This document shows, piece by piece, positions 9,831 through 26,186 of a stretch of DNA of 28,171 nucleotides; positions within the stretch are counted from its first letter, which is position 1, and each line of letters begins with the position of its first letter. This DNA is from a virus. A model generated the notes under the pieces. It was not told the DNA's origin and made no database searches. It saw only the letters and a program-made list of their open reading frames with translations. Made by a program: the position numbers and the translations under genes. The DNA lies in UHGV virus genome UHGV-1292719. One strand, given 5' to 3'.

Positions 9831-9862
9831 GTTAAAAATCAAAGACAAACTAAATTCACGCC

Positions 9863-10007: not shown

Positions 10008-10117
10008 CCAGAACTTGAGTGGTTTTGGGGATGGCGCGAATTGCAGCTGCAAGACAGCGATCGAGAAGATAAGCACCTCGACGCGTCATGCGCCAAAGCC
10101 ACTTAAAGGAGACCATC

Positions 10118-10423: not shown

Positions 10424-10425
10424 GT

Positions 10426-10764
10426 ATGCTTATGGTGAAAAAGACTATTTATGTTAATCCTGACCGCGGACAAAACAGAAAAGTATCTGATAGAGGTCTT
10501 ACATCTCGAGACAGGAGGAGAATAGCGAGATGGGAAAAGAGGATAGCATATGCATTAAAAAACGGTGTAACACCTGGATTTAATGCTATAGATGACGGCC
10601 CTGAATATAAGATTAATGAAGAACCAATGGATAAAGTTGACAAAGCATTAGCAACACCATTTCCTCGCGATGTCGAAAAAATTGAAGATGGAAAATATGA
10701 GGATGTAATGCACAGAGTTGTTAATCACGCTCACCAACGAAATCCAAATAAAAAATGGTCATAG
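10426..10764 (+). CDS. hypothetical basic protein (~112 aa) immediately after N
   Basis: ORF 10420..10764; first ATG at 10426; arginine-rich segment SRDRRRIARWEKRI; no membrane segments; followed by a strong terminator. Confidence 0.5.
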   Translation: MLMVKKTIYVNPDRGQNRKVSDRGLTSRDRRRIARWEKRIAYALKNGVTPGFNAIDDGPEYKINEEPMDKVDKALATPFPRDVEKIEDGKYEDVMHRVVNHAHQRNPNKKWS

Positions 10765-10786
10765 CCCACTTCGGTGGGTTTTTTAT
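10764..10786 (+). terminator. rho-independent terminator (UUCG tetraloop hairpin plus T-run)
   Basis: CCCAC-TTCG-GTGGG followed by TTTTTTATT. Confidence 0.7.
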
Positions 10787-10903
10787 TGTCTGAACTAACC
10801 GAATTTATTACAGCAAGCCACGCAGTGAAATGGGTGTGACTTGTGTTGGTCGCCAGAAGCAACGCGGAAAATCAATTCCAGCTTATTACGATTGAGGTGA
10901 GCC

Positions 10904-11041
10904 ATGCTCAAGAAAGTCAAACGCCGACTTTACAAAGAAGGTAGATATTCATGCCAGTTGCCAAAATGCGACACAACAAAATGGAGTGTCGATGATTGGT
11001 GTAACTGGATAGATAGATACGGAACTTGGTGGGATAAATAA
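10904..11041 (+). CDS. small cysteine/tryptophan-rich hypothetical protein (45 aa)
   Basis: Hand-translated MLKKVKRRLYKEGRYSCQLPKCDTTKWSVDDWCNWIDRYGTWWDK; GAGGTGA 5 nt upstream of the ATG. Confidence 0.35.
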   Translation: MLKKVKRRLYKEGRYSCQLPKCDTTKWSVDDWCNWIDRYGTWWDK

Positions 11042-11095
11042 CAGGTAACTTAAGCGTATTTACTTTCGCAGCAAACAACTTATTTGAGGTGATAT

Positions 11096-11182
11096 ATGGA
11101 AGAAGAATTTGAAGAGTTCGAAGAGCATCCTCAGGATGTGATGGAACAATACCAGGACTATCCTTATGACTACGACTATTGA
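11096..11182 (+). CDS. acidic 28-aa peptide, lambda orf28-like by position and length
   Basis: MEEEFEEFEEHPQDVMEQYQDYPYDYDY; GAGGTGA upstream; overlaps the ral start by ~17 nt as in lambda. Confidence 0.45.
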   Translation: MEEEFEEFEEHPQDVMEQYQDYPYDYDY

Positions 11183-11366
11183 TAAAAATCAATGGTGTGG
11201 ACAATTCAAGCGATGCAATGGATGCAAGCTGCAATCGGAATGCATGGTTAAGCCTGAAGAAATGTTTCCTGTAATGGAAGATGGGAAATATGTCGATAAA
11301 TGGGCAATACGAACGACGGCAATGATTGCCAGAGAACTTGGTAAACAGAACAACAAAGCTGCCTGA
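11166..11366 (+). CDS. ral: Ral (restriction alleviation) protein
   Basis: 66 aa, MTTTIDKNQWCGQFKRCNGCKLQSECMVKPEE...; matches lambda Ral from memory. Confidence 0.8.
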   Translation: MTTTIDKNQWCGQFKRCNGCKLQSECMVKPEEMFPVMEDGKYVDKWAIRTTAMIARELGKQNNKAA

Positions 11367-11540
11367 TAGTGACCTTTATTTTTGGCACAGAATAAACACT
11401 GCACTGTGTATTCATTCCAACGAGTGAATACACGGAGCAATGTCGCTCGTAACTAAACAGGAGCCGACTTGTTCTGATTATTGGAAATCTTCTTTGCCCT
11501 CCAGTGTGAGGGCGATTTTTTTCTGTGAGGATATGAATAG

Positions 11541-11909
11541 ATGTCAAACATCAAAAAATACATCATTGATTACGACTGGAAAGCATCAATAGAAATTGAA
11601 ATCGACCATGACGTAATGACAGAGAAAAAACTTCACCAGATTAATAATTTCTGGTCAGATTCTGAATACCGACTCAATAAACACGGCTCTGTATTAAATG
11701 CTGTATTAATCATGCTGGCGCAACATGCTCTGCTTATAGCAATTTCAAGCGACTTAAATGCATATGGTGTTGTGTGTGAGTTCGACTGGAATGATGGAAA
11801 TGGTCAGGAAGGATGGCCTCCAATGGATGGTAGCGAAGGAATAAGAATTACCGATATCGATACATCAGGAATATTTGATTCAGATGATATGACTATCAAA
11901 GCCGCCTGA
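11541..11909 (+). CDS. ea10: Ea10-like early protein
   Basis: 122 aa; position between ral and cIII and sequence consistent with lambda Ea10 from memory. Confidence 0.7.
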   Translation: MSNIKKYIIDYDWKASIEIEIDHDVMTEKKLHQINNFWSDSEYRLNKHGSVLNAVLIMLAQHALLIAISSDLNAYGVVCEFDWNDGNGQEGWPPMDGSEGIRITDIDTSGIFDSDDMTIKAA

Positions 11910-11981
11910 GCGCGGCGTTACCGCATACCAATAACGCTTCACTCGAGGCGTTTTTCGTTATGTATAAATAAGGAGCACACC

Positions 11982-12146
11982 ATGCAATATGCCATTGCAG
12001 GGTGGCCTGTTGCTGGCTGCCCTTCCGAATCTTTACTTGAACGAATCACCCGTAAATTACGTGACGGATGGAAACGCCTTATCGACATACTTAATCAGCC
12101 AGGAGTCCCAAAAAATGGATCAAACACTTATGGCTATCCAGACTAA
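11982..12146 (+). CDS. cIII: CIII (FtsH inhibitor)
   Basis: Hand-translated 54 aa [54 protein letters not shown], lambda cIII-like; AAGGAG upstream. Confidence 0.8.
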   Translation: MQYAIAGWPVAGCPSESLLERITRKLRDGWKRLIDILNQPGVPKNGSNTYGYPD

Positions 12147-12258
12147 ATTCACTATCGCCACTTTTATTGGCGATGAAAAGATGTTTCGTGAGGCCGTCGA
12201 CGCTTATAAAAAATGGATATTAATACTGAAACTGAGATCAAGCAAAAGCATTCACTAA
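12115..12258 (+). CDS. kil: Kil (FtsZ inhibitor)
   Basis: 47 aa [47 protein letters not shown], at the end of ORF 11989..12258; overlaps the cIII 3' end. Confidence 0.75.
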
Positions 12259-12629
12259 CCCCCTTTCCTGTTTTCCTAATCAGCCCGGCATTTCGCGGGC
12301 GATATTTTCACAGCTATTTCAGGAGTTCAGCCATGAACGCTTATTACATTCAGGATCGTCTTGAGGCTCAGAGCTGGACGCGTCACTACCAGCAGATCGC
12401 CCGTGAAGAGAAAGAGGCAGAACTGGCAGACGACATGGAAAAAGGTCTTCCACAGCACCTGTTTGAATCACTCTGTATCGATCATTTGCAACGCTGCGGG
12501 GCCAGCAAAAAAGCCATTACCCGTGCGTTTGATGACGATGTTGAGTTTCAGGAGCGCATGGCAGAACACATCCGGTACATGGTTGAAACCATTGCTCACC
12601 ACCAGTTTGATATTGATTCAGAGGTATAA
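12213..12629 (+). CDS. gam: Gam (RecBCD inhibitor)
   Basis: 138 aa, [36 protein letters not shown]...; lambda Gam-like. Confidence 0.9.
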
Positions 12630-12634
12630 AACGG

Positions 12635-13420
12635 ATGAGTACAGCACTCGCAACGCTGGCAGGGAAGCTGGCTGAACGTGTCGGCATGGATTCTGTCGAC
12701 CCACAGGAACTGATCACCACTCTTCGCCAGACAGCATTTAAAGGCGATGCCAGCGATGCGCAGTTCATCGCATTGTTGATCGTCGCCAACCAGTACGGCC
12801 TTAATCCGTGGACGAAAGAAATTTACGCCTTCCCTGACAAGCAGAACGGCATCGTTCCGGTGGTGGGCGTTGATGGCTGGTCCCGTATCATCAATGAAAA
12901 CCAGCAGTTTGATGGCATGGACTTTGAGCAGGACAATGAATCCTGCACATGCCGGATTTACCGCAAGGACCGTAATCATCCGATCTGCGTTACCGAGTGG
13001 ATGGATGAATGCCGCCGCGAACCATTCAAAACCCGCGAAGGCAGAGAAATCACGGGGCCGTGGCAGTCGCATCCCAAACGGATGTTACGTCATAAAGCCA
13101 TGATTCAGTGTGCCCGTCTGGCCTTCGGATTTGCTGGTATCTATGACAAGGATGAAGCCGAGCGCATTGTCGAAAATACCGCATACACTGCAGAACGTCA
13201 GCCGGAACGCGACATCACTCCGGTTAACGATGAAACCATGCAGGAGATTAACACTCTGCTGATCGCCCTGGATAAAACATGGGATGACGACTTATTGCCG
13301 CTCTGTTCCCAGATATTTCGCCGCGACATTCGCGCATCGTCAGAACTGACACAGGCCGAAGCAGTGAAAGCTCTTGGATTCCTGAAACAGAAAGCCACTG
13401 AGCAGAAGGTGGCAGCATGA
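12635..13420 (+). CDS. bet: Bet (Red-beta single-strand annealing protein)
   Basis: 261 aa, [38 protein letters not shown]...; lambda Bet-like. Confidence 0.9.
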
Positions 13421-14097
13421 CACCGGACATTATCCTGCAGCGTACCGGGATCGACGTGAGAGCTGTCGAACAGGGGGATGATGCATGGCACAAATTACGG
13501 CTCGGCGTCATCACCGCTTCAGAAGTTCACAACGTGATAGCAAAGCCCCGCTCAGGAAAGAAGTGGCCTGACATGAAAATGTCCTACTTCCACACCCTGC
13601 TGGCTGAGGTTTGCACCGGTGTGGCTCCGGAAGTTAATGCTAAGGCGCTGGCCTGGGGAAAACAGTACGAGAACGACGCCAGAACCCTGTTTGAATTCAC
13701 TTCCGGCGTGAATGTTACTGAATCCCCGATCATCTATCGCGACGAAAGTATGCGCACCGCCTGCTCTCCCGATGGTTTATGCAGTGACGGCAACGGCCTT
13801 GAACTGAAATGCCCGTTTACCTCCCGGGATTTCATGAAGTTCCGGCTCGGTGGTTTCGAGGCCATAAAATCGGCTTACATGGCCCAGGTGCAGTACAGCA
13901 TGTGGGTGACGCGAAAAGATGCCTGGTACTTTGCCAACTATGACCCGCGTATGAAGCGTGAAGGCCTGCATTATGTCGTGATTGAGCGGAATGAAAAGTA
14001 CATGGCGAATTTTGACGAGATGGTGCCGGAGTTCATCGAAAAAATGGACGTGGCACTGGCTGAAATTGGTTTTGTATTTGGGGAGCAATGGCGATGA
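13417..14097 (+). CDS. exo: Exo (lambda exonuclease)
   Basis: 226 aa, [40 protein letters not shown]...; lambda Exo-like; overlaps the bet stop. Confidence 0.9.
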
Positions 14098-14255
14098 AGC
14101 ATCCTCACGATAATATCCGGGTAGGCGCGATCACTTTCATCTACTCCGTTACAAAGCGAGGCTGGGTATTTCCCGGCCTTTCTGTTATCAGAAATCCACT
14201 GAAAGCACAGCGGCTGGCTGAGGCGATAAATAATAAACGGGGGCTGTATGACTGA
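14094..14255 (+). CDS. small exo-xis region protein (53 aa)
   Basis: ATG overlaps the exo stop; [53 protein letters not shown]; 3' end overlaps the methyltransferase start. Confidence 0.4.
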
Positions 14256-14805
14256 TTTCACCGGAAGCAATACTCCTGCCGAACATCGCGACAGCTGGCG
14301 CACACCACCAGAGATTTTTGCTGCGCTTAATGCAGAGTTCGTTTTTCAACTTGATGCTGCCGCCAGCGAAAAAAACCGACTATGTCGGCTTTTTATCTCA
14401 CAGGAGCAGAACACATTAACCACTTCATGGCCTGAAGCAATGGGATATGCCTCTGGTTATGTCTGGTTGAATCCACCATACAGCAATATTTCCCCTTTTG
14501 TGAAAAAGGCAGCCACTGAAAACAAATTCAGTAGTGTGGGATGTGTAATGTTATTGCCTGCTGACACATCTGTCGGATGGTTTCATGAAGCGATACAAAC
14601 CGCCAGTGAGGTCAGATTCATCACGGCAGGACGACTGGCATTTATTAACCCACTCACTGAGAAACCCGTCAGTGGAAATAATAAAGGCTCGATGCTCATT
14701 ATCTGGCACCCATACCCCCGTACACACTGCCACTTTACGACCGTTGATCGTGGAGAGTTGATGGCGTTCGGCTCAAGGATTCTTGCCCGTCGGGAGGCTG
14801 CATGA
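14248..14805 (+). CDS. orphan DNA N6-adenine methyltransferase (phage Dam-like)
   Basis: 185 aa with the NPPY catalytic motif (YVWLNPPYSN); no adjacent restriction endonuclease gene. Confidence 0.8.
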   Translation: MTDFTGSNTPAEHRDSWRTPPEIFAALNAEFVFQLDAAASEKNRLCRLFISQEQNTLTTSWPEAMGYASGYVWLNPPYSNISPFVKKAATENKFSSVGCVMLLPADTSVGWFHEAIQTASEVRFITAGRLAFINPLTEKPVSGNNKGSMLIIWHPYPRTHCHFTTVDRGELMAFGSRILARREAA

Positions 14806-14885
14806 CAACCACGGAATGCATTTTTCTGGCAGCGGGCTTCATATTCTGTGTGCTTATGCTTGCCGACATGGGACTTGTTCAATGA
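14802..14885 (+). CDS. small hydrophobic peptide (27 aa), translationally coupled
   Basis: MTTTECIFLAAGFIFCVLMLADMGLVQ; ATGA overlaps at both ends. Confidence 0.3.
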   Translation: MTTTECIFLAAGFIFCVLMLADMGLVQ

Positions 14886-15097
14886 CACCTCAGCAGGAAA
14901 ACGCCCTTCGCAGCATTGCCCGTCAGGCTAATTCTGAAATCAAAAAAGCCAGACAGCAGTTTCCGGATAAAAACGTCGATGACATTTGCCGTAGCGTACT
15001 TAAGAAGCACCGCGAAACGGTAACGCTGATGGGATTCACACCGACTCATTTAAGCCTGGCGATCGGCATGTTAAACGGCGTCTTTAAGGAACGGTGA
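14882..15097 (+). CDS. hypothetical protein (71 aa)
   Basis: In-frame ATG inside ORF 14783..15097 that overlaps the upstream stop: MTPQQENALRSIARQANSEIKKARQQFPDKNVDD... Confidence 0.45.
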   Translation: MTPQQENALRSIARQANSEIKKARQQFPDKNVDDICRSVLKKHRETVTLMGFTPTHLSLAIGMLNGVFKER

Positions 15098-15195
15098 ACA
15101 TGAAAAGCAAAATCATCAGGGAGCTACAGGCTCCTTTTTTATTGTTCGCATTCATCCTCAAGCGTATTAACCAACAATTCAGGGATTAATGGAAG

Positions 15196-15414
15196 ATGGC
15201 AGACATCATTGATTCAGCATCAGAAATCGAAGAATTACAGCGCAATACAGCAATAAAAATGCGTCGTCAGAACTACCAGACTGTATCCGCAACTCATTGT
15301 TGTGAGTGTGGCGATCCGATAGATGAGCGAAGACGCCTGGCTGTTCAGGGTTGTCGGACTTGTGCAAGTTGCCAGGAGGAGATCGAACTTAAGAACAAAC
15401 AATGGGGACTGTGA
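15196..15414 (+). CDS. DksA/TraR-family C4 zinc-finger protein
   Basis: 72 aa with CCECG...CRTCASC (CxxC-17-CxxC). Confidence 0.7.
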   Translation: MADIIDSASEIEELQRNTAIKMRRQNYQTVSATHCCECGDPIDERRRLAVQGCRTCASCQEEIELKNKQWGL

Positions 15415-15461
15415 TGGCCTCAAAGCAGCAAATTTCAACATCGTCCAACTGAGGTGTAAAA

Positions 15462-15740
15462 ATGTTCAGAATCATTTTTCCTAACACCTGGTACGTCGAC
15501 CACCACGGCACTCCCTGCAAAATCCTGCGTTCTACCCACAACAAAGTTCACTACATCCGAAAAGGCAGAACATGTATCGCCAGCATGTTCCGCTTTAATC
15601 ATGACTTTGAACCTGTGAATAAAGCTGATGCAGATCGGATAGCAGAAGAGATCGAAACGGCAGAACACATTAAGAAGTTACGTGACATGCGTTCAAAAAG
15701 CAGAGGTAACCATGGAATCATACAGCCTCACACTCGATGA
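15462..15740 (+). CDS. hypothetical prophage protein (92 aa)
   Basis: ORF directly upstream of xis; no recognised motif. Confidence 0.5.
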   Translation: MFRIIFPNTWYVDHHGTPCKILRSTHNKVHYIRKGRTCIASMFRFNHDFEPVNKADADRIAEEIETAEHIKKLRDMRSKSRGNHGIIQPHTR

Positions 15741-16062
15741 GGCCTGTCAGTTTCTTAAGATATCCAGACCAACCGCCACCAACTGGATACGAACAGGCCG
15801 CCTACAGGCAACACGTAAAGATCCAACCAAGCCAAAATCTCCTTACCTCACAACACGGCAAGCCTGCATTGCGGCGCTTCAGTCTCCGCTGCATACTGTC
15901 CAGGTGAGCGCGGGTGATGGCATAACAGAGGAAAGAAAATGTCACTCTTCCGCAGAAGTGAAATATGGTACGCCAGTTTCACATTGCCGAACGGTAAAAG
16001 ATTTAAACAGTCTCTTGGAACAAAGGACAAAAGGCAGGCGACAGAGCTCCATGACAAGCTAA
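15712..16062 (+). CDS. xis: excisionase, P22 Xis-like
   Basis: From [37 protein letters not shown]... (HTH-like), ~116 aa; overlaps the int 5' end. Confidence 0.6.
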
Positions 16063-17102
16063 AGGCTGAAGCATGGCGGGTCAGCAAACTTGGTGAAATA
16101 CCTGATATAACGTTCGAGGAAGCGTGTGTCAGGTGGCTTGAAGAGAAAGCACATAAAAAATCACTGGACGATGACAAAAGCCGGATCGGATTCTGGCTTC
16201 AACATTTCGCAGGAATGCAACTAAGAAACATTACTGAATCAAAAATTTATTCAGCAATGCAGAAAATGACGAACCGGCGTCATGAGGAAAACTGGAAACT
16301 CAGGGCAGAAGCATGCAGAAAAAAAGGGAAACCTGTTCCAGAATACACGCCAAAACCAGCGTCCGTTGCAACGAAGGCGACGCATCTTTCATTTATAAAG
16401 GCCCTGCTAAGAGCCGCAGAGCGTGAATGGAAAATGCTCGATAAGGCACCAATTATTAAAGTGCCTCAACCAAAGAATAAACGGATCCGCTGGCTGGAGC
16501 CCCATGAAGCACAAAGGCTGATTGATGAATGTCCGGAGCCATTAAAGTCTGTTGTTGAATTTGCACTGGCAACAGGCTTAAGACGCTCGAACATCATCAA
16601 CCTTGAATGGCAACAAATAGATATGCAGCGCCGGGTGGCATGGATAAACCCGGAAGAGAGTAAATCAAACCGCGCAATTGGCGTTGCGCTGAATGATACT
16701 GCATGTCGCGTATTGAAAAAACAAATCGGGAATCATCACCGTTGGGTATTTGTGTACAAGGAAAGCTGTACCAAACCAGACGGAACGAAAGCGCCAACAG
16801 TAAGGAAGATGCGGTATGACGCAAACACAGCCTGGAAAGCGGCGCTGAGACGGGCTGGTATTGATGATTTCAGATTTCACGACTTGAGACACACCTGGGC
16901 AAGTTGGCTGGTTCAAGCCGGAGTCCCGTTGTCAGTGTTACAGGAAATGGGAGGCTGGGAGTCTATCGAAATGGTTCGTCGATATGCTCACCTTGCACCT
17001 AATCACCTTACCGAACACGCACGGCAAATAGACTCGATCCTGAACCCATCCGTCCCAAATTTGTCCCAGTCAAAAAATAAGGAAGGTACTAATGATGTGT
17101 AA
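15939..17102 (+). CDS. int: tyrosine integrase, P22 / thrW-targeting family
   Basis: 387 aa; C-terminal catalytic motifs [10 protein letters not shown] and MVRRYAHL (R-H-R-Y tyrosine recombinase signature); ends 14 bp before the att core. Confidence 0.9.
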
Positions 17103-17116
17103 CTTATTGATTTAAA

Positions 17117-17162
17117 TGGTGCCGATAATAGGAGTCGAACCTACGACCTTCGCATTACGAAT
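17117..17162 (-). other. attachment-site core: 46-bp copy of the 3' end of tRNA-Thr (thrW-type), not a complete tRNA
   Basis: Minus strand reads ATTCGTAATGCGAAGGTCGTAGGTTCGACTCCTATTATCGGCACCA (anticodon-stem 3' half, T-arm, acceptor 3' strand, CCA); sequence 5' of it (CTTATA...) does not continue the tRNA. Confidence 0.75.
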
Positions 17163-17608
17163 TATAAGAATCCGCTTCTAATTCAAAGCATTACCCCATC
17201 AACACTGCGCTCACACGTCCCACCACATCAAAACATGTAAAGCCTTGCAAGCCATTGTGAGGCCTTTTGTGTCTCAGTTTTGTCCCATCCGCGCTTGTGT
17301 TTTCTTTCATACATACACAATAATATAAATTAAAATAATAAACTATGAAACTAATGTGTCTTTCATCAACAACATGGTAACAATGCTTATTATAACATTG
17401 TGTAATTATCATTTTTTCCGAGCATTGTGTGAAATTCATACCGATTTGTTGCAAAAAAAAATTACAAGTAAAATGTTTTTAAAATGTAATTTTGGAGGAA
17501 AAGACAAGTCTACTAACCACCTGTTAATACAATTAATCATGAATATATTTCTTTAGCCCCGAGATATTAATTAATTAGTTGTTCATCGCTTTATATACTG
17601 GTTTCATT

Positions 17609-19810
17609 ATGCTTAATAAAAAAACAATTGCTGTGTTAATAGCTTCTACAATTCCAACAACAGCTTTAGCCGCATCATTTACTCAAAATATTGCAAAAGG
17701 AACAGAAGTCAGCAATGAGGTTATTGATGGTAAGCAGTCCGTTTATGGTAATATTACAAATAGTATGATTACTACTGGCGGGCATCAATACATTTACTCT
17801 GGAGGAGCAGCTTCTGATATTATTCTTAATGGTGGTAAAAGCACTGTAAATAACGCCGACATCAAAAATTTCAAAATAATAAACGGAATTCAGGCCTTAA
17901 ATACTGGTGCTATATCTTATTCCGCAGAAATAACTGGAACGGGTATCCAGCGTGTAAATGATGGTGCTAAATCAGCTTATAGCACATTAGCCAATGGTGG
18001 TCGACAGTATATAAATTCTGGTGGAAAGTCAGAAAACACCACTATTGAAAGTGGTGGGAGTCTTTATACTTACGCTAACGGTGAGTCCCTCAACACTACT
18101 GTCAATGATGGGGCGTTCTTTGTTAGAGGGGGGACTGCAACTAATAGCGTTATTAATGGTGGTAAACAAGTAGTAACCGAAGGAGGGATCACTACTGGTG
18201 ACATTATCAATGACGGTGGTTATCAAAATATTGGTGTAAATGGTTCTGCCTTTAATGTTGTAGTTAATAAAGGCGGCCGTCAAGATATTAATACTGGCGG
18301 CTATGCAAAAGATACAACCATCATTGGTGGACAATATGATATAGATCCAGAGGCAACTGGTGAAAATGTAAGTTTTGACGGTGGTTTAGGTTTTGTTCGT
18401 GAAACTGGAATTTTAACTGGCTATGCCACTCTAAAAAACGGTGCTGAAATTTATATGGCTGAGGGTTCTGATGCAGATATTTCACTATCTAGTCAGAGCA
18501 AGCTTTATGTTGTTAATGATATTACAAATAGCAACATGACACTGGATAACTCATCTGTTTATTTCCGTTCTTCTTTTGATGGTGAATTATCAACAAATTT
18601 AAAAGAATTTAAAACTCTGAACGTCAATAAACTAAACGCCAATAACTCCTCGTTCTTTATGAAAGTTGAAGGTATGAATGGCGATTTTCTTAATATTTCC
18701 GAGTTTTCTGGCGATAACAACACAGTTAGCATTAATGGTAGCGGTAAAGAAAGCAGTGATGGATATCATCTGATTCACGCTGGTAATAGTAGTGTTGATG
18801 CTTTTAAATTAGACGGTGGCAAAGTTGAACTTGGCTCATATGTCTATACATTAGAAAAAAATAATGATGACTGGTATTTAAGACAGCATGCTGATCAACT
18901 TTCATCCTCAGCAAAAACTGTTCTTTCAATGGCATCTTATGCATCTTCAATATTTACAAATGAATTTCATACTATCTCTGATAGATTGAATAATAGTTTG
19001 ACCGATATTGAAGGGAATCATCTTTGGGGAAGATTTATCAGCTCTGATTATCGTGTTAATAATGGTGTGAATGAACCATATAAACTTACACAAAATGGTT
19101 TTGAGTATGGATTAGGCAAAACCATTTCAAAAGAACATGGCGATTTTAGTTTTGGTATCTCCGCTGGTATTACCCAAAACAAAATAAAAGAAAAATCTGG
19201 GACTCGTTCTGATGTTGACAGTTACTCAGTTGGTTTATACGGTTCCTATATCCACAAAAACGGATTCTACATTGATGGATTAATCAAAGGAAACCGATTT
19301 GATAACACTACGGAGATTATCATTGATTCGTCCGACATTGCTACTGCTAATTTTAAACAAACTGGCTTTGGTTCTGCATTAGAATTTGGCAAATATACTT
19401 GGTTTGATAATTCATTTGTTACTCCATATGTACGAACAGAATACTTCATGGCCAACAATGAAGAAGTTAAGATTAGCAATGGAATGAAGGCTGATTTGGG
19501 CAATGACAGATCATTGAAAGGAGAAGCCGGGGTTAAATTAGGGACAAACTTAAATGTTTGGCAAAACACTAATATTACTCCATACTTAAAAGTATCACTT
19601 GAACACGAATTCATTGATGACAACTATATTAAGATCAATGACAGTGTAAAAATTAACAATGATAACTCGGGAACCATCGGGAATTATAGTTTAGGCCTTG
19701 ATGCTAAGATGGGCAAAAATGCATCTTTTTATTCTGAGCTTGGTTACTCTAAAGGTTCAAACATCGAGGTTCCATTCAACGTAAAAGCTGGTGTTCGAGT
19801 CCTCTTTTAA
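17609..19810 (+). CDS. autotransporter (type Va) adhesin-like protein: signal peptide, repetitive beta-helical passenger, C-terminal beta-barrel
   Basis: ORF 17579..19810 trimmed to MLNKKTIAVLIASTIPTTALAA; repeated ~19-aa GG-x-Q-x-I-x-GG-x-A-x-T-I motifs; C-terminus ends ...NVKAGVRVLF; AT-rich codon usage. Confidence 0.85.
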   Translation: MLNKKTIAVLIASTIPTTALAASFTQNIAKGTEVSNEVIDGKQSVYGNITNSMITTGGHQYIYSGGAASDIILNGGKSTVNNADIKNFKIINGIQALNTGAISYSAEITGTGIQRVNDGAKSAYSTLANGGRQYINSGGKSENTTIESGGSLYTYANGESLNTTVNDGAFFVRGGTATNSVINGGKQVVTEGGITTGDIINDGGYQNIGVNGSAFNVVVNKGGRQDINTGGYAKDTTIIGGQYDIDPEATGENVSFDGGLGFVRETGILTGYATLKNGAEIYMAEGSDADISLSSQSKLYVVNDITNSNMTLDNSSVYFRSSFDGELSTNLKEFKTLNVNKLNANNSSFFMKVEGMNGDFLNISEFSGDNNTVSINGSGKESSDGYHLIHAGNSSVDAFKLDGGKVELGSYVYTLEKNNDDWYLRQHADQLSSSAKTVLSMASYASSIFTNEFHTISDRLNNSLTDIEGNHLWGRFISSDYRVNNGVNEPYKLTQNGFEYGLGKTISKEHGDFSFGISAGITQNKIKEKSGTRSDVDSYSVGLYGSYIHKNGFYIDGLIKGNRFDNTTEIIIDSSDIATANFKQTGFGSALEFGKYTWFDNSFVTPYVRTEYFMANNEEVKISNGMKADLGNDRSLKGEAGVKLGTNLNVWQNTNITPYLKVSLEHEFIDDNYIKINDSVKINNDNSGTIGNYSLGLDAKMGKNASFYSELGYSKGSNIEVPFNVKAGVRVLF

Positions 19811-19826
19811 TATTCAATAATGTTAC

Positions 19827-19858
19827 CCTGTACGCCCATTATTAATTGGGCGTACAGG
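19827..19858 (+). terminator. long perfect hairpin downstream of the autotransporter gene
   Basis: CCTGTACGCCC-ATTATTAATT-GGGCGTACAGG (11-bp stem); only a weak T-tract follows. Confidence 0.45.
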
Positions 19859-19940
19859 CCTCTCATTACATTTTAATATTTAAATTCAATTCAAAATTCA
19901 CATCATAATCTATTAATTATTAAACATTAACATTCTTACA

Positions 19941-20429
19941 TCAAATCAAGCATCGCACTCTGAAGCAAGTAGCCATCTGCCTGCTTCCTTTGATCTGCGA
20001 GAAGTTTGTGGCAGTGATCACCAATCCCCCCTGTGCGCGAGCAGCTTTCAGTCCAGCTTTTGTTCGTTCAACAATCAGTTCACGCTCCATTTCAGCCAGA
20101 GCACCCATCACATGAAAGAAAAAGCGTCCCATTGAGGTACTGGTATCAATTGAATCCGTCAGACTACGAAAGTTGATGCCTCGTTCGCGCAACTCCTCCA
20201 CCAGCACGACAAGATGCCGCATACTGCGCCCCAGCCGATCCAGCTTCCAGACAACCAGAGTGTCACCTTCCGATAATGTCCTGAGCAGTTTTTTCAATCC
20301 CGGCCTTTCGGACTTTGTACCGCTTATCTTGTCTTCAAAAATCAGCTCGCATCCTGCACAGTTCAGCGCATTACGTTGTAGATCTGTGTTCTGGTCATTT
20401 GTTGACACACGTACATAGCCAATAAGCAT
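19941..20429 (-). pseudogene. pin: Din-family serine invertase (Pin/Gin/Hin-like), catalytic domain intact, C-terminal HTH domain lost
   Basis: MLIGYVRVSTNDQNTDLQRNALNCAGCELIFEDKISG...VERTKAGL is a typical resolvase/invertase catalytic domain; after ARAQG the frame diverges at a C6/G6 homopolymer (20036-20041) and ends in unrelated sequence at the junction with the AT-rich islet. Confidence 0.7.
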
Positions 20430-20455
20430 GGTAGATCTCCCTGACAAAAGCAGGG

Positions 20456-21007
20456 ATGATGCCATTTGCTCGTTATTTCTACATTTTCATAAACGTTGGT
20501 TTGGGAGAAGGCTCTGCATTACCTGTTGGGGTGCCTGTTCCGTGGCCTTCAGCCACTCCGCCAACAGGCTGGCTGAAATGCAACGGAGCAGCTTTTTCTG
20601 CTGAAGAATACCCGGAGCTGGCAAAGGCTTACCCGACAAATAAATTGCCTGATTTACGTGGTGAGTTTATTCGTGGCTGGGATGACGGACGTGGTATGGA
20701 TACGGGGAGGGCAATATTATCCGCTCAGGGCGATGCCATACGTAATATCTATGGTGAGTTCAAGACTGTAAACACCGAAAATTATTCAATATGGGAATCA
20801 GTAGGCTCTTTTAAGGGGGCAGTGGTGCCTTTGAACCCCTCAACGAACAATAGTTATTTCTCCTTAATCAGAAGTATGGTGACAGAAAGAACAGATGGCG
20901 CTGTTTACCCAAAAGTGATTGGCCTTGATGCTTCAAGAATTGTTCCAACTGCAAACGAAAACCGTCCTCGTAACATTGCCTTTAATTATATCGTGAGGGC
21001 TGCCTGA
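20456..21007 (+). CDS. alternative tail-fibre C-terminal segment (Sv'-type) inside the invertible segment; silent in this orientation
   Basis: ORF has no credible own start; from the crossover site it encodes ...NVGLGEGSALPVG..., and the expressed fibre on the other strand encodes ...[11 protein letters not shown] at the matching site. Confidence 0.6.
   Translation: MMPFARYFYIFINVGLGEGSALPVGVPVPWPSATPPTGWLKCNGAAFSAEEYPELAKAYPTNKLPDLRGEFIRGWDDGRGMDTGRAILSAQGDAIRNIYGEFKTVNTENYSIWESVGSFKGAVVPLNPSTNNSYFSLIRSMVTERTDGAVYPKVIGLDASRIVPTANENRPRNIAFNYIVRAA
20484..20509. repeat. left recombination site (hix/gix-like) of the invertible segment
   Basis: Core AAACG-TT-GGTTT; 15-bp perfect inverted repeat TTGGTTTGGGAGAAG shared with 22368-22382. 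Confidence 0.55.
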
Positions 21008-21609
21008 TGAATAAAGCCGTATTAAATAACGAACTCATTGCCATAAAAGCGGGAGTCATTACCATTTATAATTATGATGGTGAAACGCGGGAGTATATTT
21101 CCACATCAACTGAATATCTTGCGGTTGGCGTCGGTATCCCGGCATGTTCTTGTTTAGATGCACCAGTTACACATAAAGCTGGTTATGCAATCTGCCGTTC
21201 TGCAGATTTTAACTCATGGGAATATGTGCCAGACCATCGCGGTGAAATCATCTATAGCACCGAAACAGGAGAATCGAAAGAAATCACAGCTCCGGGTGAT
21301 TATCCTGAAAATACAACCACTATCGCCCCGTTAACGCCATACGATAAATGGGATGGTGAGAAATGGGTGACGGATACCGAGGCACAGCATAGCGCCGCAG
21401 TAGAAGCGGCAGAAGCACAGCGCCAGTCGCTGATTGATGCTGCAATGGCTTCCATCAGTCTGATTCAGCTGAAATTACAGGCCGGGCGGAAGCTGACGCA
21501 GCCAGAAAACACCCGACTTAACGCTGTGCTGGATTATATTGACGCGGTGACGGCAACAGATACCAGCACAGCGCCAGACGTCATCTGGCCTGAACTGCCG
21601 GAGGCGTAG
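21007..21609 (+). CDS. tfa: tail fibre assembly protein (chaperone) paired with the silent fibre segment
   Basis: 200 aa; conserved C-terminal chaperone region ...DYIDAVTATDTSTAPDVIWPELP. Confidence 0.8.
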   Translation: MNKAVLNNELIAIKAGVITIYNYDGETREYISTSTEYLAVGVGIPACSCLDAPVTHKAGYAICRSADFNSWEYVPDHRGEIIYSTETGESKEITAPGDYPENTTTIAPLTPYDKWDGEKWVTDTEAQHSAAVEAAEAQRQSLIDAAMASISLIQLKLQAGRKLTQPENTRLNAVLDYIDAVTATDTSTAPDVIWPELPEA

Positions 21610-22021
21610 GCCATTCAATATCTGGCGCACCGGAAGTATCGACCAGTTCCAGTGCGTCCAGATAATCCAGCCACAAATTATATTGCGCCAGTTCCCCACC
21701 TTTCAGGCGACCAATCGCCGCTTTACCAGGCCATTGCTTACTGTTTATGTATTCGTTGACCTGATTAATCAATTGCTGCTTTTCCAATTCGGCTGCGGCA
21801 ATTTGTTCCTCATGAGTTGGCGGTGGAATATCAATCCATGCAGGCATTCCGTCGATGACACCTCTGTATTTTCCTTCTGGTGCTTCCTTCATAAATTCGG
21901 CGGCAACAGTGTCGTCAATTTCGATTCCATCACCGGGCCATTCGCCGGATTCCTGATAAGCGATTTTAAGCTCCACAGGGAAAAACGCATTTTTATCGGC
22001 ACTGAAAATATATTTCTGCAT
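21581..22021 (-). CDS. tfa: tail fibre assembly protein (chaperone) for the expressed fibre
   Basis: 146 aa; C-terminus ...LWLDYLDALELVDTSGAPDIEWPTPP parallels the plus-strand copy. Confidence 0.8.
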   Translation of the reverse strand: MQKYIFSADKNAFFPVELKIAYQESGEWPGDGIEIDDTVAAEFMKEAPEGKYRGVIDGMPAWIDIPPPTHEEQIAAAELEKQQLINQVNEYINSKQWPGKAAIGRLKGGELAQYNLWLDYLDALELVDTSGAPDIEWPTPPAVQAR

Positions 22022-22023
22022 TT

Positions 22024-22737
22024 CTACCGTCCTATCGAAATATAACTGAATCTGTATTGCTGTGAGATATCACTGGTTGCCACACGCCACGCTGAATTAC
22101 TGATATGTTCAAAATTTACAGACAAAACCTGCGGGGCAGGATTCGACGGGTCTGACTGAACGGCATCAGACATAACACTGACTGAAACCATCGGCTGATT
22201 AGGGAATGGTATAGGGAAGTGTCCACTGATAAAGCGGGTCGTGTTTCCTGAAAAAGTGCCAAACTGAACAATATATCCACCTGGTAGCCTGAACCATCCC
22301 GAACCAGAAGCGAATGCTCCCATATCCGGTATCTGATTATCTCCTGTGCCCACATCCCTTTTCGCCGCTTCTCCCAAACCAAGGTTTTCGAGAGCCGTTT
22401 TCACCGTGCCATCCGATTTGATATCGCCAAACGGATTCTTGCGGCTCAGGTATTCAACAGCAAACCCCGATCCCAGCAATTCAACAAAACCGGGCAGATC
22501 ACCATTATCAAGCACATCCCGTTGCGTTTTGTCACTTACAAACTGGGCCAGAGCTGCAGCAATAAAGCTGGCCTGCCGAATAACCTTATTGACTTGCGCA
22601 CTGGATGCTTTCCCTGCTGTAAATCCGGATAAAAGCGCAGGCAACGCTTCCCATTCCTCCTGCGACATAACATTGGCATTCCGATCAGTTGCAAACGCTT
22701 TAAAGTCATTTTTCGCCATCAGAGTAATACTCCCCAT
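22024..22737 (-). CDS. tail fibre protein (constant N-terminal part fused to the currently expressed variable C-terminal part)
   Basis: 237 aa; N-terminal [27 protein letters not shown]...[23 protein letters not shown] is typical of Mu S / e14 Stf-type fibres; crossover site lies inside the gene. Confidence 0.75.
22369..22394. repeat. right recombination site (hix/gix-like) of the invertible segment, inside the tail-fibre gene
   Basis: Palindromic core AAACC-AA-GGTTT (plus strand 22376-22387); inverted copy of the left site. Confidence 0.55.
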
Positions 22738-23399
22738 GCCCCTACATCAAAACCACTGATGAATTCGTTATCCATATCAAAACCAAAAAATTTTGAACCT
22801 TCCGATGGAGTTTCCACCGAAGGTGTTTCAATGCCACCCGCCCAAACCCCGGCGGCTTTTACTGTGAGATATCCCTGTTTAATTGCAGCAATTAACTCAC
22901 GCGATACATCTGAAATATCAGTATCAGGAAAGAGCCAGACCGATATCGTCATGTCCTGGTTATCGACTATCTGCATTCGCAGTCCGGATCCTGCTGTCGC
23001 CGCGTCAAGAATTGCTGGAAGCGAATCATTCCGTCCGTCCCAGTTATTAATCGCAATCTTCGCTTTAAGGATGACACGATAAGTTTCATCGCTGAGGTAC
23101 ATGTATCCGGAATCAGGATCGTATGGCCCCTGCCATACACCCTGATCATATCCAAGCCCGTCGGTATCCCAGCTGAAATACACACCTGAGATAGGCTGGC
23201 TGACAACACGGCTACGTCCGATCCACAATCCCAGAATGTCAAGTTGCACACCAACCGCAGAGTCAATATCAAATGCAGTAATCAGCCCTCTGGTGGCAGC
23301 CGCAACATCAATAAGTGGCCGGGTCATCAGATCAACATGCGCAAGAAATTTAGGTTTGGTGGCGTGGTAGTTCGTGATTAGTTCGGTGTATTTGCTCAT
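22719..23399 (-). CDS. phage tail protein (Mu gp48 / e14 YmfQ-like)
   Basis: 226 aa between the baseplate J-like gene and the tail fibre, overlapping both; order matches Mu-type baseplate clusters. Confidence 0.6.
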
Positions 23400-24595
23400 G
23401 ACTCCACCGTTATAACGATATTTTCCGGGGTACAGGACGCAGATTCGTTGTATCTGATATCAATGTTTGATGACGACAAAGCCCCCGGGGATTTCCCAAT
23501 CGTCAGTTCCTGAATATCGTAATAGCGTGCATTCCCGCCACTCACCACGCCAAGATTCGCCGGTGAGTAAATGCGACTTAAAAGGACCGAATCACCAATC
23601 GTCAGACTATTGATATAGTCGGAAATAGCCTGCTGGATCTGCTGCCCTATCTGTGAGGTATAACCCGTAAAAACTTTTAATTTAATCAGGGCATAAACAG
23701 GCACATCACTGGAACGCGAGAATTTGATTACATGGGGATTGCCGTATTTATCCGGAACCGTAACGGATGTTGTACCGTGAGTGGCTGTCCCCTGGCCTTT
23801 ATTCCCTCTGATAGCCTGAGCAATATCCGTTACATCACCGCCATCCACAATTACAGCAACAGAGTGTGGCGGTAACCCGTTACCGTCCTCCGAACCAGTA
23901 TCGTTTTCATAGAGTTTGTGGCGGGTTACACCGGTAACATTAGAAACAGCACCATCCAGTGCTTCAAATGGGGTTATTGATGGCAACGCAACACTTTGCG
24001 ACTGGCGGATACGTAACTCAGCGTCAGTTTCTGCCGGAGTGCCCACAGTAGCCGCAGCAGGATTAGTTACCGAAACCCAGCCACGGGTTGGCGTATTAAT
24101 TTCAGTGATAGTTCCAGCCAGCGCCGCCACTGCACCACTGACGGAACATGTTGCGGTCACCATCACTGTACCATCCACTCCGACCACCACTGAAGCAGGC
24201 AAACGCCATATCACATTATTACTGTCTTTCACGCTGCCATTAATGATGGTTGTTCCGGCAGTTCCTGTAAGAAGCAAATCAACCGTAGAATTCGTCGCGC
24301 CTCTACGTGAAATACCATTTATTTTCACGTTACTGGTCAGTGAGGCCCCATAGCCGGTTGCTGGTGAAAAACAGTTGTAGACAGTTATCGCCATATTATT
24401 GGCATCATGAATTGCCAGCGCCATCAGAGCCACCATCTGACCGTCTTTACTGTCCGGTTCGAGGTAGGCATCACTACCATAAATCTGCTGAAAATAGCTA
24501 ATCAGGGTGCTGAGTATCGTCTGATAATCAGGCGCACTGATCCCCTCCGCGGTTACCTTTGCAGATAAACCGAGAGAATCAAGGTTCAGAGCCAT
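23396..24595 (-). CDS. baseplate J-like protein (Mu gp47 family)
   Basis: 399 aa; size and position (W-like, J-like, I-like, fibre) typical of Mu/P2-type baseplate modules. Confidence 0.75.
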   Translation of the reverse strand: MALNLDSLGLSAKVTAEGISAPDYQTILSTLISYFQQIYGSDAYLEPDSKDGQMVALMALAIHDANNMAITVYNCFSPATGYGASLTSNVKINGISRRGATNSTVDLLLTGTAGTTIINGSVKDSNNVIWRLPASVVVGVDGTVMVTATCSVSGAVAALAGTITEINTPTRGWVSVTNPAAATVGTPAETDAELRIRQSQSVALPSITPFEALDGAVSNVTGVTRHKLYENDTGSEDGNGLPPHSVAVIVDGGDVTDIAQAIRGNKGQGTATHGTTSVTVPDKYGNPHVIKFSRSSDVPVYALIKLKVFTGYTSQIGQQIQQAISDYINSLTIGDSVLLSRIYSPANLGVVSGGNARYYDIQELTIGKSPGALSSSNIDIRYNESASCTPENIVITVES

Positions 24596-24948
24596 TACGC
24601 CTCCGATGTAACAGTCGTTATTCCATAAAGAGTGTCGATTTCAGCGGAAAACATGACACGTCGGGTCGTGGTATCCACCGTCGTATTGAAAGAGAGGATT
24701 GATTTAACGCCCCGCGTTTCAAGGATGCGCTTACGGATCGCCAGGTTGTAGGTTTCCGGCTTCTGCTTACCGAGTACGGACTGGATCCACGGAATCCCCT
24801 CGGTGGTGTCGAGAAACCATTGCCCATACCACAATTCGAATCGCGTTTTTACCGCCTGCGCCACGGCCTCCGGTGAGTTAATCAGCCAGGTGTCATCACC
24901 GCTGCCAAAGGTGTAATCGCCATCGGCGTCTTCACGTCTGTATCGCAT
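24595..24948 (-). CDS. small baseplate protein (W / gp25-like, tentative)
   Basis: 117 aa directly upstream of and overlapping the J-like gene. Confidence 0.5.
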   Translation of the reverse strand: MRYRREDADGDYTFGSGDDTWLINSPEAVAQAVKTRFELWYGQWFLDTTEGIPWIQSVLGKQKPETYNLAIRKRILETRGVKSILSFNTTVDTTTRRVMFSAEIDTLYGITTVTSEA

Positions 24949-25721
24949 CAGTTTACTCCGTCGGTATTGCTTCCACCGCGCTGAACACCACCATGAGTGT
25001 GCGTATCATCGATTGGCTTGCCGTTAGCCTTCACGCTACCCAAAAACTCAACAGCACCAGTGATTTTTGAAGCCACACCAGAAACAACAGACCCCACCAT
25101 GCCTCCCATCCAGGTTAACAGGCCATGAATGGTTACTTTCTCAGAAAAATCAGCCAGAGGGGCAACCACATCAAGCCCCCCCGGAGCGACAATTTTAATT
25201 TTCCTGGTATCAGGATTAAGCTCAAAATAGGTGCTGCCGTCGTCACTACGCAACTGTGTGGCACTGGTATTAATACCGCTAATCTTCCTTGCCTGCGACT
25301 GGGGACCGACAATACAAAACGCATCCGATAAATCATGCATTCGATCATCGACCGGCTCCTGTATCCCGCCACTCTGCCACCAGAAATCAATACAACGATC
25401 GGCAAAAATCACCAGGCATTCATCGCCGGCTTCCACCGGGAAAGTTAACGTGCAGCCGCCGCCGCGCGGGAATACCACTGGCACATCCACCAGCAATGGG
25501 TAATTTTGGGTAATGCGGTTGCCGTCATTATCCTTTTCAACCGAACGGATCGCAGGCTGCACAACCGCTGTCACCGCATCAGGATCGAATGACTGGACGA
25601 TGCCAGGCAAAGCAACACGGATCTGGTTCTTTGTTGTGTCCCGCTCTGATTTGAATGTTTCGGCAAGGTCGCCGCTGCGGGTCGGGTCAGATAATGCCAT
25701 TTGGTAGGCTCCAGAAAGCAA
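24948..25721 (-). CDS. baseplate spike / assembly protein V-like (Mu gp45 family, tentative)
   Basis: 257 aa with glycine-rich C-terminus (GGMVGSVVSGVASKITGAVEFLGS...HTHGGVQRGG); upstream of the W-like gene. Confidence 0.55.
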   Translation of the reverse strand: MLSGAYQMALSDPTRSGDLAETFKSERDTTKNQIRVALPGIVQSFDPDAVTAVVQPAIRSVEKDNDGNRITQNYPLLVDVPVVFPRGGGCTLTFPVEAGDECLVIFADRCIDFWWQSGGIQEPVDDRMHDLSDAFCIVGPQSQARKISGINTSATQLRSDDGSTYFELNPDTRKIKIVAPGGLDVVAPLADFSEKVTIHGLLTWMGGMVGSVVSGVASKITGAVEFLGSVKANGKPIDDTHTHGGVQRGGSNTDGVN

Positions 25722-25763: not shown

Positions 25764-26186
25764 TTAACTTGCAGTTTTTTTAGTATCAATCATACCAGCA
25801 ATAAGTGACTGCAAATCCTCTGCATCCTTGATGGTACTACAAGCATCAATCCGATTAACGTGCTTATCAAGATTATAATCAGCAATGACTCTTCGGTGAT
25901 GCGCGGTTTTGAGCTTAAGCCCAACCTTTTTGGCAGAAGTTCGGTCAAGACTATGTGCTAGAGCTGCATTCTCGCCGCAAAGATATTCAGAAAGCCTCGC
26001 ATGTACCCCACCGGGTAACTTTTGCCCTTTCTCATCTTGAGTTGGGATATAGCCATCCGTGAGCAATAACGCTGAATGATACATCGTATAATACGCTCTA
26101 CTTATCGCATTACGCGTCCACTGTTCACCGCTATTCTCAATAGAGCTTTTAGCCATCTCCAGAAAGCAGTTAATCGCTACAGGCAT
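25764..26186 (-). CDS. HEPN-like protein (140 aa), tentative
   Basis: N-terminal helix AISRAYYTMYHSALLLTDG resembles the conserved first helix of HEPN domains and contains an R-x6-H spacing; start overlaps the upstream stop. Confidence 0.55.
   Translation of the reverse strand: MPVAINCFLEMAKSSIENSGEQWTRNAISRAYYTMYHSALLLTDGYIPTQDEKGQKLPGGVHARLSEYLCGENAALAHSLDRTSAKKVGLKLKTAHHRRVIADYNLDKHVNRIDACSTIKDAEDLQSLIAGMIDTKKTAS

Follow-up and report, generated by a model that had tools for sequence, protein, structure and literature searches.

An e14-type tail-fibre inversion switch in an Escherichia coli prophage whose own invertase is an old pseudogene

Organization of the switch locus

We analysed a 28,171-nucleotide stretch of DNA (UHGV virus genome UHGV-1292719), referred to below as the window. 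The locus described here belongs to an E. coli prophage and is a switch of the e14 "P segment" type, which inverts tail-fibre DNA; its own invertase is an old pseudogene. Its features are as follows.

17117..17162, minus strand: perfect 46-bp copy (46/46) of the 3' part of thrW (tRNA-Thr), a ptwF-like secondary attachment site
17579..19810, plus strand: 743-aa autotransporter in an AT-rich island (32-40% GC), with Autotransporter, Pertactin and AIDA domains
19941..20429, minus strand: Pin-type serine invertase pseudogene, 162-aa ORF (catalytic domain 20028-20429)
20345..20408, minus strand: presumed recombinational enhancer within the surviving 5' part of the pin gene, from our reading of the sequence
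20456..21007, plus strand: silent cassette 1, StfE-like ORF with a Collar-domain fibre C-terminus (Pfam)
20484..20509, plus strand: left 26-bp site, TTTTCATAAACG-TT-GGTTTGGGAGAA, crossover dinucleotide 20496-20497
20498..22380, no strand: invertible segment, 1883 bp between the crossover dinucleotides
21007..21609, plus strand: cassette 1 assembly chaperone, TfaE-like, 200 aa (Caudo_TAP, E 5e-32)
21581..22021, minus strand: cassette 2 assembly chaperone, 146 aa, now in the expressed orientation (Caudo_TAP, E 5e-33)
22024..22737, minus strand: currently assembled tail-fibre gene, 237 aa, with a gp53-like C-terminus (Pfam Gp53-like_C)
22369..22394, plus strand: right 26-bp site, TTCTCCCAAACC-AA-GGTTTTCGAGAG, crossover dinucleotide 22381-22382
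22719..25721, minus strand: upstream late-operon genes running into the fibre gene (from Pfam and from how the homologous, intact locus of strain APEC-O117H42 is annotated)

The window contains exactly two copies of the core TTGGTTTGGGAGAAG, one at 20496-20510 (+) and the other at 22368-22382 (-); no copies are expected by chance (100 dinucleotide-preserving shuffles), and the inverted-repeat arms reach 20 nt (AAACGTTGGTTTGGGAGAAG / CTTCTCCCAAACCAAGGTTT). The two 26-bp sites are inverted relative to each other, each with a central 2-bp crossover, and the right site falls within the fibre reading frame (codons ...LGLGE...). The left site has the same sequence as the pinE-proximal site of e14 in K-12 and as the repeat quoted in PMC12529663, and the right site has the same sequence as the distal site of e14. 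The initial annotation had described a perfect 15-bp core at these two places, centred on AAACG-TT-GGTTT and AAACC-AA-GGTTT, with two opposed fibre C-termini between them, each with its own chaperone. All of this reads as described, the cassettes being recognized by their Collar, Gp53-like_C and two Caudo_TAP domains.

The constant N-terminal part of the fibre gene (22383-22737) lies outside the segment and its variable C-terminus (22024-22382) inside. The first 14 codons of the cassette 1 ORF are likewise outside, while the part from 20498 onward would be fused to the constant fibre part after inversion. Inversion in silico yields an in-frame fibre of 288 aa, so both states are translatable. 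All four cassette genes are open reading frames, and the switch is structurally intact. Around the left site, 689 nt (20019-20706) have 94.6% DNA identity to the pinE-stfE region of e14 in K-12, and the cassette 1 chaperone has 88% DNA identity to the tfaE region. The late-operon genes encode a DUF2612 protein, baseplate J, a 117-aa protein and a spike/baseplate V-like protein; NCBIfam did not assign a specific name to the invertase, to the fibre or to the ORF at 25764-26186.

The family's recombinational enhancer, which in hin lies in the 5' part of the gene, is presumed to be kept in the same part of the dead gene. Two 15-mers of the Fis type, G-N13-C, are found at 20394-20408 and 20345-20359 (gene nt 22-36 and 71-85), and from homology and the hin enhancer sequence we take these to be candidate Fis sites. 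They lie in the stretch shared with K-12 pinE-stfE. The candidate enhancer is about 95 bp from the left site, a spacing compatible with that of the hin enhancer, which is about 100 bp from hix (PMC3798978).

The invertase pseudogene

The 162-aa ORF contains the Resolvase N-terminal domain (PF00239, aa 3-135, E 7e-51) with the active-site-serine motif YVRVSTNDQ, and its catalytic domain shares 130/134 residues with K-12 PinE and has 97.8% identity to intact PinE. The ORF is shorter than the Fis/enhancer-dependent invertases, which have about 184-190 aa. Pfam did not find HTH_7 in it, whereas an intact homologue has this domain at residues 138-180, and in the three frames and a stitched reading Pfam found no HTH at E<=10. 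A tblastn search of the window with the C-terminal 55 residues of PinE returned nothing significant (E about 5).

The frame is lost at a G6 run at 20026-20031 where one base is missing, and in alignments with two intact pinE genes the window gene has a minimum of two 1-bp deletions, with substitutions amounting to about 30%. A single frameshift as the only lesion is excluded by the further indels and by the loss of similarity after codon 158. The residual similarity to PinE, about 70% identical, covers codons 141-158 at 19960-20008 and ends at 19960, that is, at codon 158 of 184, and helices 2-3 of the helix-turn-helix are missing. Helix 1 of the invertase DNA-binding domain is contacted by Fis (PMC3798978). 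At about 19940 the GC content drops from 45-60% to 17%, which makes the junction with AT-rich DNA a real one. The initial annotation was therefore right that the catalytic domain is kept, that the DNA-binding domain is lost and that the gene ends where AT-rich DNA begins; it was also right that the frame is left at a C6/G6 homopolymer, but it placed this at 20036-20041 and did not include the further lesions. PGAP (NCBI) calls the identical remnant in other genomes a pseudogene, "frameshifted; incomplete; missing C-terminus", and for the invertase this call is correct.

The tail beyond the G run has no close intact relative among E. coli genomes, where a blastn search in the "distant" setting matched the 27 remnants described below only. 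Phage matches to the pin gene end at the G run, while matches to a plasmid pinE run 70 nt past it at only about 70% identity. The local score of the residual tail against the plasmid pinE, a closer gene than the pinE of APEC, is 31, compared with 15.7 +/- 2.2 for shuffles and reached by 1 of 2000; a first test against the APEC pinE was marginal (5/500). By these searches the tail is decayed PinE-type sequence and does not come from another invertase lineage.

Carriers of the remnant

The remnant tail is present in 27 of 5426 complete E. coli genomes, one copy in each, at 98.8-100% identity and always adjoined by the same AT-rich autotransporter. This shows the dead invertase to be an old, inherited pseudogene. 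The autotransporter is flanked by the dead invertase and the attachment-site fragment, a place taken in e14 by mcrA (order pinE-mcrA-attR). The thrW fragment marks where a lambdoid prophage (1-17162) ends, and it is also the outer boundary of the older, thrW-integrated element that contains the switch. The similarity to the prophage stops at 17162 and that to remnant-bearing loci begins at 17099, and the identical fragment is present in locus L007, which has no left prophage. In carriers without a prophage at the attachment fragment the remnant adjoins a yagP fragment and paoD; in LR-46 thrW is followed by int, the early genes, the tail genes, the fibre, the switch, the dead pin, the autotransporter, the yagP fragment and paoD, in that order.

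Behind this conserved end the loci differ. The tail module behind the switch is of the YmfQ type in most carriers and of the DUF2612 type in the window and LR-46, and the catalytic part of the gene ranges from 90.2% (H9Ecoli) to 100% (BA92) identity to the window while the tail is invariant. The carrier loci are thus mosaics produced by homologous recombination. A truncated prophage end and its cargo gene can evidently persist while the prophage body behind them is exchanged.

Orientation of the segment

The segment is found in both orientations within the lineage. By the feature that adjoins the remnant, about 12 carriers are called window-like and 9 flipped-type. In PSS-11 and 1217KP the window's cassettes are reverse-complemented between the same flanks, with 98.5-100% identity where they match. 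The other case is 160-11H1 versus EC-07 and L9. These three share a 1-bp deletion at gene nt 327 that leaves ORFs of 117, 117 and 89 aa, respectively, a dead gene with three independent lesions in one sub-lineage. When 160-11H1 is re-inverted in silico it aligns colinearly with EC-07 along 8088 nt, and 15 positions differ. Two of these are in the 1898-nt segment and two in the right flank; none falls in the stretch that runs from the final 674 nt of the autotransporter across the spacer and the entire dead gene through the left site. The pair differs by a clean flip of the 1.9-kb segment, and this flip appears to be later than the death of the gene. For the window's own combination of the remnant with a DUF2612-type tail the only carrier that could serve as flip partner is LR-46, in which the switch is degraded.

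Discussion

The switch occupies the far end of a prophage that is integrated at tRNA-Thr thrW. Late-operon transcription (minus strand, right to left) would reach the constant fibre N-terminus, 22737 to 22383, then cross the right 26-bp site and enter whichever cassette faces the operon, at present the gp53-like C-terminus with its 146-aa chaperone and, after inversion, the Collar-domain C-terminus with its 200-aa chaperone. The 3' end of pin, encoding helices 2-3 of the DNA-binding domain, has been replaced by the AT-rich autotransporter island, and the remaining traces of the domain are frameshifted and decayed, so that the 162-aa protein cannot be expected to bind the sites. Both sites and the cassettes are intact, as is the 5' part of the pin gene, in which the Fis-dependent enhancer of the family is expected, and the segment therefore is probably still a competent substrate. 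It would then be inverted whenever another prophage or a plasmid in the cell supplies a cognate Pin-family invertase. We consider this whole reading, an e14-type switch with a dead cis invertase and a competent segment flipped in trans, to be the probable one, with a good deal of room for doubt.

The initial annotation had regarded the switch as probably locked unless another invertase acts in trans. For the lineage the locked state is unsupported, since carriers of the same dead gene are found in both orientations and 160-11H1 and EC-07 differ by a flip. The same observations make its escape clause the better-supported reading, and because the flip came after an extra frameshift shared within the dead gene, the switch is best read as an orphan that is flipped in trans. 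The orphan switches of this lineage would thus still undergo inversion, the most likely agent being an invertase produced elsewhere in the cell. Candidate sources exist. One genome, APEC-O117H42, has both the remnant and an intact pinE, with a left site identical to that of the window and a right site that differs by one base. In 17 of the 27 carriers a query made of the remnant and its flanks matches one or more additional loci, presumably pin-like (one was inspected). The e14 P segment is inverted in trans by PinQ of prophage Qin (PMC12529663) and, according to PMC3535392, citing Kutsukake et al. 2006, Fin of Fels-2 inverts the H segment in the absence of Hin.

The strongest alternative is that the window's switch is a locked fossil, frozen with the gp53-like C-terminus expressed, either because no cognate invertase is present or because the levels of heterologous invertases are too low. 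No second invertase or serine recombinase was found in the 28-kb window. Ten of the 27 carriers, including the flipped-type 1217KP and LR-50, have no second match to the query of remnant and flanks, which is blind to PinQ-type genes (38% identical to PinE). In several carriers the switch has decayed further, with IS1 in place of the right site in BA92 and degraded cassettes in PSS-08-1 and LR-46, and in a K-12 pinE mutant the P segment was locked although the chromosome has pinQ and pinR (PMC12529663). The pinE deletion may, however, also have removed the enhancer. Against a lock, the window's two sites match the e14 sites exactly and all four cassette frames are open, and the 160-11H1/EC-07 flip, by its shared frameshift, seems to postdate the death of the gene. 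Across 57% of the query length the window's left prophage is moreover 98% identical to a type of prophage that in SM107 has an intact pinE at its far end; the window strain may or may not contain such an invertase. We therefore regard a locked switch as unlikely, although it deserves to be taken seriously.

It is also conceivable that both orientations were imported, that is, that pre-flipped segments came from phages with a live invertase by recombination through the pin catalytic and constant fibre regions. The mosaicism of the loci is in keeping with this. The catalytic part varies while the tail does not, two types of tail module are found behind the switch, and between 1217KP and JS01 the flipped segment is 98.0% identical while the left flank is only 93.8% identical. 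Some of the orientation differences could thus be imports and not in situ flips. For 160-11H1 and EC-07, however, the imported DNA would have to come from a donor of identical sequence and leave no recombination tract behind, and as a general explanation we find it improbable.

That the invertase is truly intact, its frameshift being a homopolymer sequencing error or an on/off slippage tract as the initial annotation had also allowed, has next to no probability and is effectively excluded: the G run does vary, with seven bases in 1217KP and six in the others, but G6 is found in 15 of 16 remnant-bearing sequences compared, from independent assemblies, the G7 variant still stops after 164 aa (...GGIGDHCHKLLADQRKQADGYLLQSAMLDLM, then the stop codon) without a helix-turn-helix, the second 1-bp deletion, the roughly 30% substitutions and the zero similarity past codon 158 all persist, no HTH is found by Pfam in any frame or stitched reading, and a read error does not explain why the same remnant, called a pseudogene by PGAP, recurs beside the AT-rich autotransporter island in 27 independent complete genomes.

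A switch with a dead invertase that is found cleanly flipped between near-identical loci provides support from natural populations for cross-talk between prophage invertases. It also means that, even with a broken neighbouring invertase, the orientation in an assembly cannot safely be assumed to be fixed. One may speculate further that the dead-invertase end is a fixed recombination anchor at the thrW island for successive phages of different tail types, although we think this rather doubtful. If it were true, incoming YmfQ-type or DUF2612-type phages would recombine via pin/switch homology, and each would lose the 3' end of its invertase and attR and so be grounded. The orphan switch would be retained because the host gains from its inversion in trans, for instance when small StfE/StfE2-like products prevent other phages from adsorbing, as reported for e14, and its orientation would report which invertase-bearing elements share the cell.

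Comparison with known systems

The window's locus is homologous to the textbook tail-fibre switch of the e14/Mu type. In the G segment of Mu with Gin and the C segment of P1 with Cin, Sc lies outside the segment, Sv/U and Sv'/U' lie inside, and a Fis/enhancer-dependent serine invertase is encoded just outside (PMC12529663, PMC3798978). By description the window shares this switch logic, but Mu and P1 are functional phages with a live invertase.

The closest likeness in detail is to e14 of K-12 (stfP-tfaP / tfaE-stfE-pinE; PMC12529663). Besides the two identical 26-bp sites, both elements have the order constant fibre, site, two opposed C-terminus and chaperone cassettes, site, divergent invertase gene, cargo and attachment site; the catalytic domains agree at 130/134 residues, and the TfaE-type cassette has 88-95% DNA identity. 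Unlike e14, the window has an invertase without its DNA-binding domain, and its cassette 2 (gp53-like C-terminus and 146-aa chaperone) shows no similarity to stfP-tfaP in DNA. The segment measures 1883 bp in the window against 1797 bp in e14, the element is at thrW and not at icd, the cargo is an autotransporter in place of mcrA, and the tail module is of the DUF2612 type where that of e14 is of the YmfQ type. Action in trans has been demonstrated experimentally for Fin on the H segment and PinQ on e14, whereas for the window we infer it from genome comparisons. In those two systems a prophage invertase flips a switch located elsewhere, and this is the mechanism that we propose for the orphan switch of the window.

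The invertase remnant and its switch

The switch and its invertase occupy the following positions.

19941-20429, minus strand: invertase ORF, 162 aa
20456-21007, plus strand: Collar-domain fibre C-terminus
20484-20509: left 26-bp site, TTTTCATAAACG-TT-GGTTTGGGAGAA
21007-21609, plus strand: Caudo_TAP chaperone, 200 aa
21581-22021, minus strand: Caudo_TAP chaperone, 146 aa
22024-22737, minus strand: fibre with a gp53-like C-terminus, 237 aa, first 118 codons outside the invertible segment
22369-22394: right 26-bp site, TTCTCCCAAACC-AA-GGTTTTCGAGAG

The pin-type invertase has kept its catalytic domain and lost its DNA-binding domain, as the initial annotation proposed. Pfam detects the Resolvase catalytic domain alone; an intact homologue adds HTH_7 at residues 138-180. 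Residues 1-134 are 97.8% identical to one intact PinE and match K-12 PinE at 130 of 134 positions. The frame is indeed lost at a homopolymer, which reads G6 on the coding strand and lies at 20026-20031, ten nucleotides from the 20036-20041 originally assigned. In an alignment to an intact plasmid pinE the 70 nt after the G run are only about 70% identical and include a second 1-bp deletion, so the defect comprises more than one lesion. Similarity to pinE is supported up to position 19960, that is, over codons 141-158 (score 31 against 15.7 +/- 2.2 for shuffles, with one of 2000 shuffles reaching 31), and the alignment gives no further similarity beyond it. GC content falls from 45-60% to 17% at about 19940, confirming that the ORF ends at an AT-rich junction. 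A residual helix-turn-helix, sought in every frame and in a stitched reading, gave no Pfam match. Because pinE similarity stops at 19960 and GC content falls at about 19940, helices 2 and 3 are physically missing and the rest of the motif is frameshifted.

The anatomy of the switch is as first described, with inverted sites and two opposed fibre/chaperone cassettes. The window has two copies of the 15-mer TTGGTTTGGGAGAAG, one at 20496-20510 (+) and one at 22368-22382 (-), where chance predicts none, and the inverted arms of the sites reach 20 nt. At both sites the same frame reads ...GLGE..., and in-silico inversion yields an in-frame 288-aa fibre. The pin-proximal ORF begins 40 bp outside the segment (MMPFARYFYIFINV...; 20456-20497), and inversion would therefore swap its C-terminus too, changing the product from 183 aa to 132 aa.

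Setting and age of the remnant

The window DNA is from E. coli. Left of the switch it contains the following.

1-17162: half of a lambdoid prophage, with its early and regulatory genes, terminal gene an integrase
15939-17102, plus strand: integrase of this prophage
17117-17162, minus strand: 3' part of tRNA-Thr thrW, copied over 46 bp with no mismatch, a secondary attachment site
17163-19940: AT-rich island, 32-40% GC
17579-19810: autotransporter within the island, 743 aa, AIDA/pertactin-type, BafA-like C-terminal barrel

A remnant-tail query (19880-20045) searched in 5426 complete E. coli genomes matched exactly 27, always as a single chromosomal copy 98.8-100% identical, and the G run has six bases in 15 of 16 remnant-bearing sequences compared. 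These results effectively rule out the suggestion that the homopolymer is a sequencing error and show the lesion to be old and inherited rather than an artefact. In the sole G7 variant, 1217KP, the ORF still terminates without a helix-turn-helix. PGAP labels the remnant in other genomes 'frameshifted; incomplete; missing C-terminus'.

The same autotransporter adjoins the remnant in all 27 carriers, and its island is seen only with the dead pin end (27/5426). In carriers without a prophage at the att fragment, the remnant lies beside a yagP fragment and paoD. The gene order in strain LR-46 is proA, thrW, int, lambdoid early genes, head and tail genes, DUF2612 gene, fibre, switch, dead pin, autotransporter, thrW fragment, yagP fragment, paoD, which makes the dead invertase, on gene order, the distal end of a prophage integrated at thrW. 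In the simplest history, pin would have lost its 3' end when the AT-rich cargo was acquired. The thrW fragment directly follows the left-prophage integrase, which is 92.6% identical to that of the LR-46 thrW prophage. Because the same fragment is present in carriers without the left prophage, this prophage appears to have inserted at the thrW island's old attR copy (ptwF-like), so that the autotransporter now lies between two prophages placed back to back.

Other features include a GC-rich hairpin 3' of the autotransporter stop codon (about 19826-19859) and, within the lambdoid prophage, two tRNA genes 5 bp apart, Thr-TGT and Asn-GTT (4311-4466, minus strand). Baseplate genes on the minus strand lie right of the switch. 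Just upstream of a spike/baseplate V-like gene in their operon, a 140-aa ORF (25764-26186, minus strand) has no match in Pfam or NCBIfam and is a possible moron gene; at the corresponding place, matched by position alone, APEC-O117H42 has a 'hypothetical protein'.

Probable inversion after loss of the invertase

The loss of the DNA-binding domain had been taken to leave the switch probably locked. This is too strong, since carriers occur in both orientations and one flip appears to follow the death of the cis invertase. In PSS-11 and 1217KP the cassettes of the window lie in reverse complement within the same flanks (98.5-100% identical where matching), and, judged by the feature beside the remnant, about 12 genomes are window-like and 9 of the flipped type. 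Strains 160-11H1, EC-07 and L9, from different laboratories, have in common a further 1-bp deletion, at gene nt 327, that shortens their ORFs to 117, 117 and 89 aa, respectively, and marks one sub-lineage. The 1898-bp segment of 160-11H1 is inverted relative to EC-07 and L9; re-inverted in silico, 160-11H1 is colinear with EC-07 over 8088 nt and differs from it at 15 positions. Two of these fall inside the segment and another two in the right flank; the stretch that runs from the final 674 nt of the autotransporter across the dead gene and left site has no mismatch. Because this inverted pair shares the extra deletion and near-identical flanks, we infer that the flip postdates the invertase's death and left no recombination tract, the pattern predicted if an invertase acting in trans carried out a site-specific inversion. 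Homologous import of an already-flipped segment fits this pair poorly.

The window has no second serine recombinase in its 28 kb. A remnant-plus-flanks query matches at least two places in 17 of 27 carriers; within the sub-lineage it matches four places in 160-11H1, three in L9 and one in EC-07. In APEC-O117H42, where the remnant occurs together with an intact pinE, the left site matches that of the window exactly and the right site departs from it by one base.

Mosaicism among carriers

Across carriers the tail and island are invariant, the catalytic part is 90.2-100% identical to the window, and the remnant's similarity to intact pinE genes breaks off at about 20019-20030, by the G run. Behind the switch, most carriers have a YmfQ-type tail module, and the window and LR-46 a DUF2612-type one; in YmfQ-type carriers the match to the window stops about 64 bp beyond the right site. 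Because the catalytic part varies, the 3' tail is invariant and the tail-module type differs, the data suggest that incoming phages, recombining homologously against a fixed dead end, repeatedly rewrote the prophage body right of the G run.

Later decay stages of the switch are seen in the compared loci of BA92 (locus positions 6456-7929), PSS-08-1 (6016-7231) and LR-46 (5394-7194). In BA92 the right site and the constant fibre part have given way to IS1 copies, and PSS-08-1 has cassettes that are degraded or joined to CP4-6-type genes (ykfB, yafY-like).

Comparison with known switches

The enhancer in this invertase family lies within the coding sequence of the invertase, in its 5' part. The window gene retains this part (94.6% DNA identity to K-12 over 689 nt) and with it a putative enhancer region. 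In hin the enhancer is about 100 bp from one site (PMC3798978). Inversion in trans has precedents: PinQ of prophage Qin inverts the P segment of e14, a cryptic K-12 prophage (PMC12529663), and Fin of Fels-2 inverts the H segment of Salmonella in the absence of Hin (PMC3535392). A K-12 pinE mutant was reported locked although pinQ and pinR are on the chromosome (PMC12529663); that deletion may have taken the enhancer as well.

Both 26-bp sites are identical to those of the e14 P segment and include the repeats quoted for it (PMC12529663). As in the pin-proximal ORF here, e14 stfE starts outside the segment, and the two forms of the product are structural counterparts of the K-12 StfE/StfE2 pair, reported to affect T2 adsorption; the swapped-in C-terminus here is unrelated in DNA sequence to e14 stfP. 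The cargo slot between pin and attR holds mcrA in e14 and an ATPase/HNH pair in an intact relative in SM107, in contrast to the autotransporter here. The feature is an e14/Mu-type fibre switch, a very well-known kind, with a pseudogenised invertase whose status is already flagged in public annotation. The genome comparisons that favour flipping of such an orphan switch in trans add modestly to this picture.
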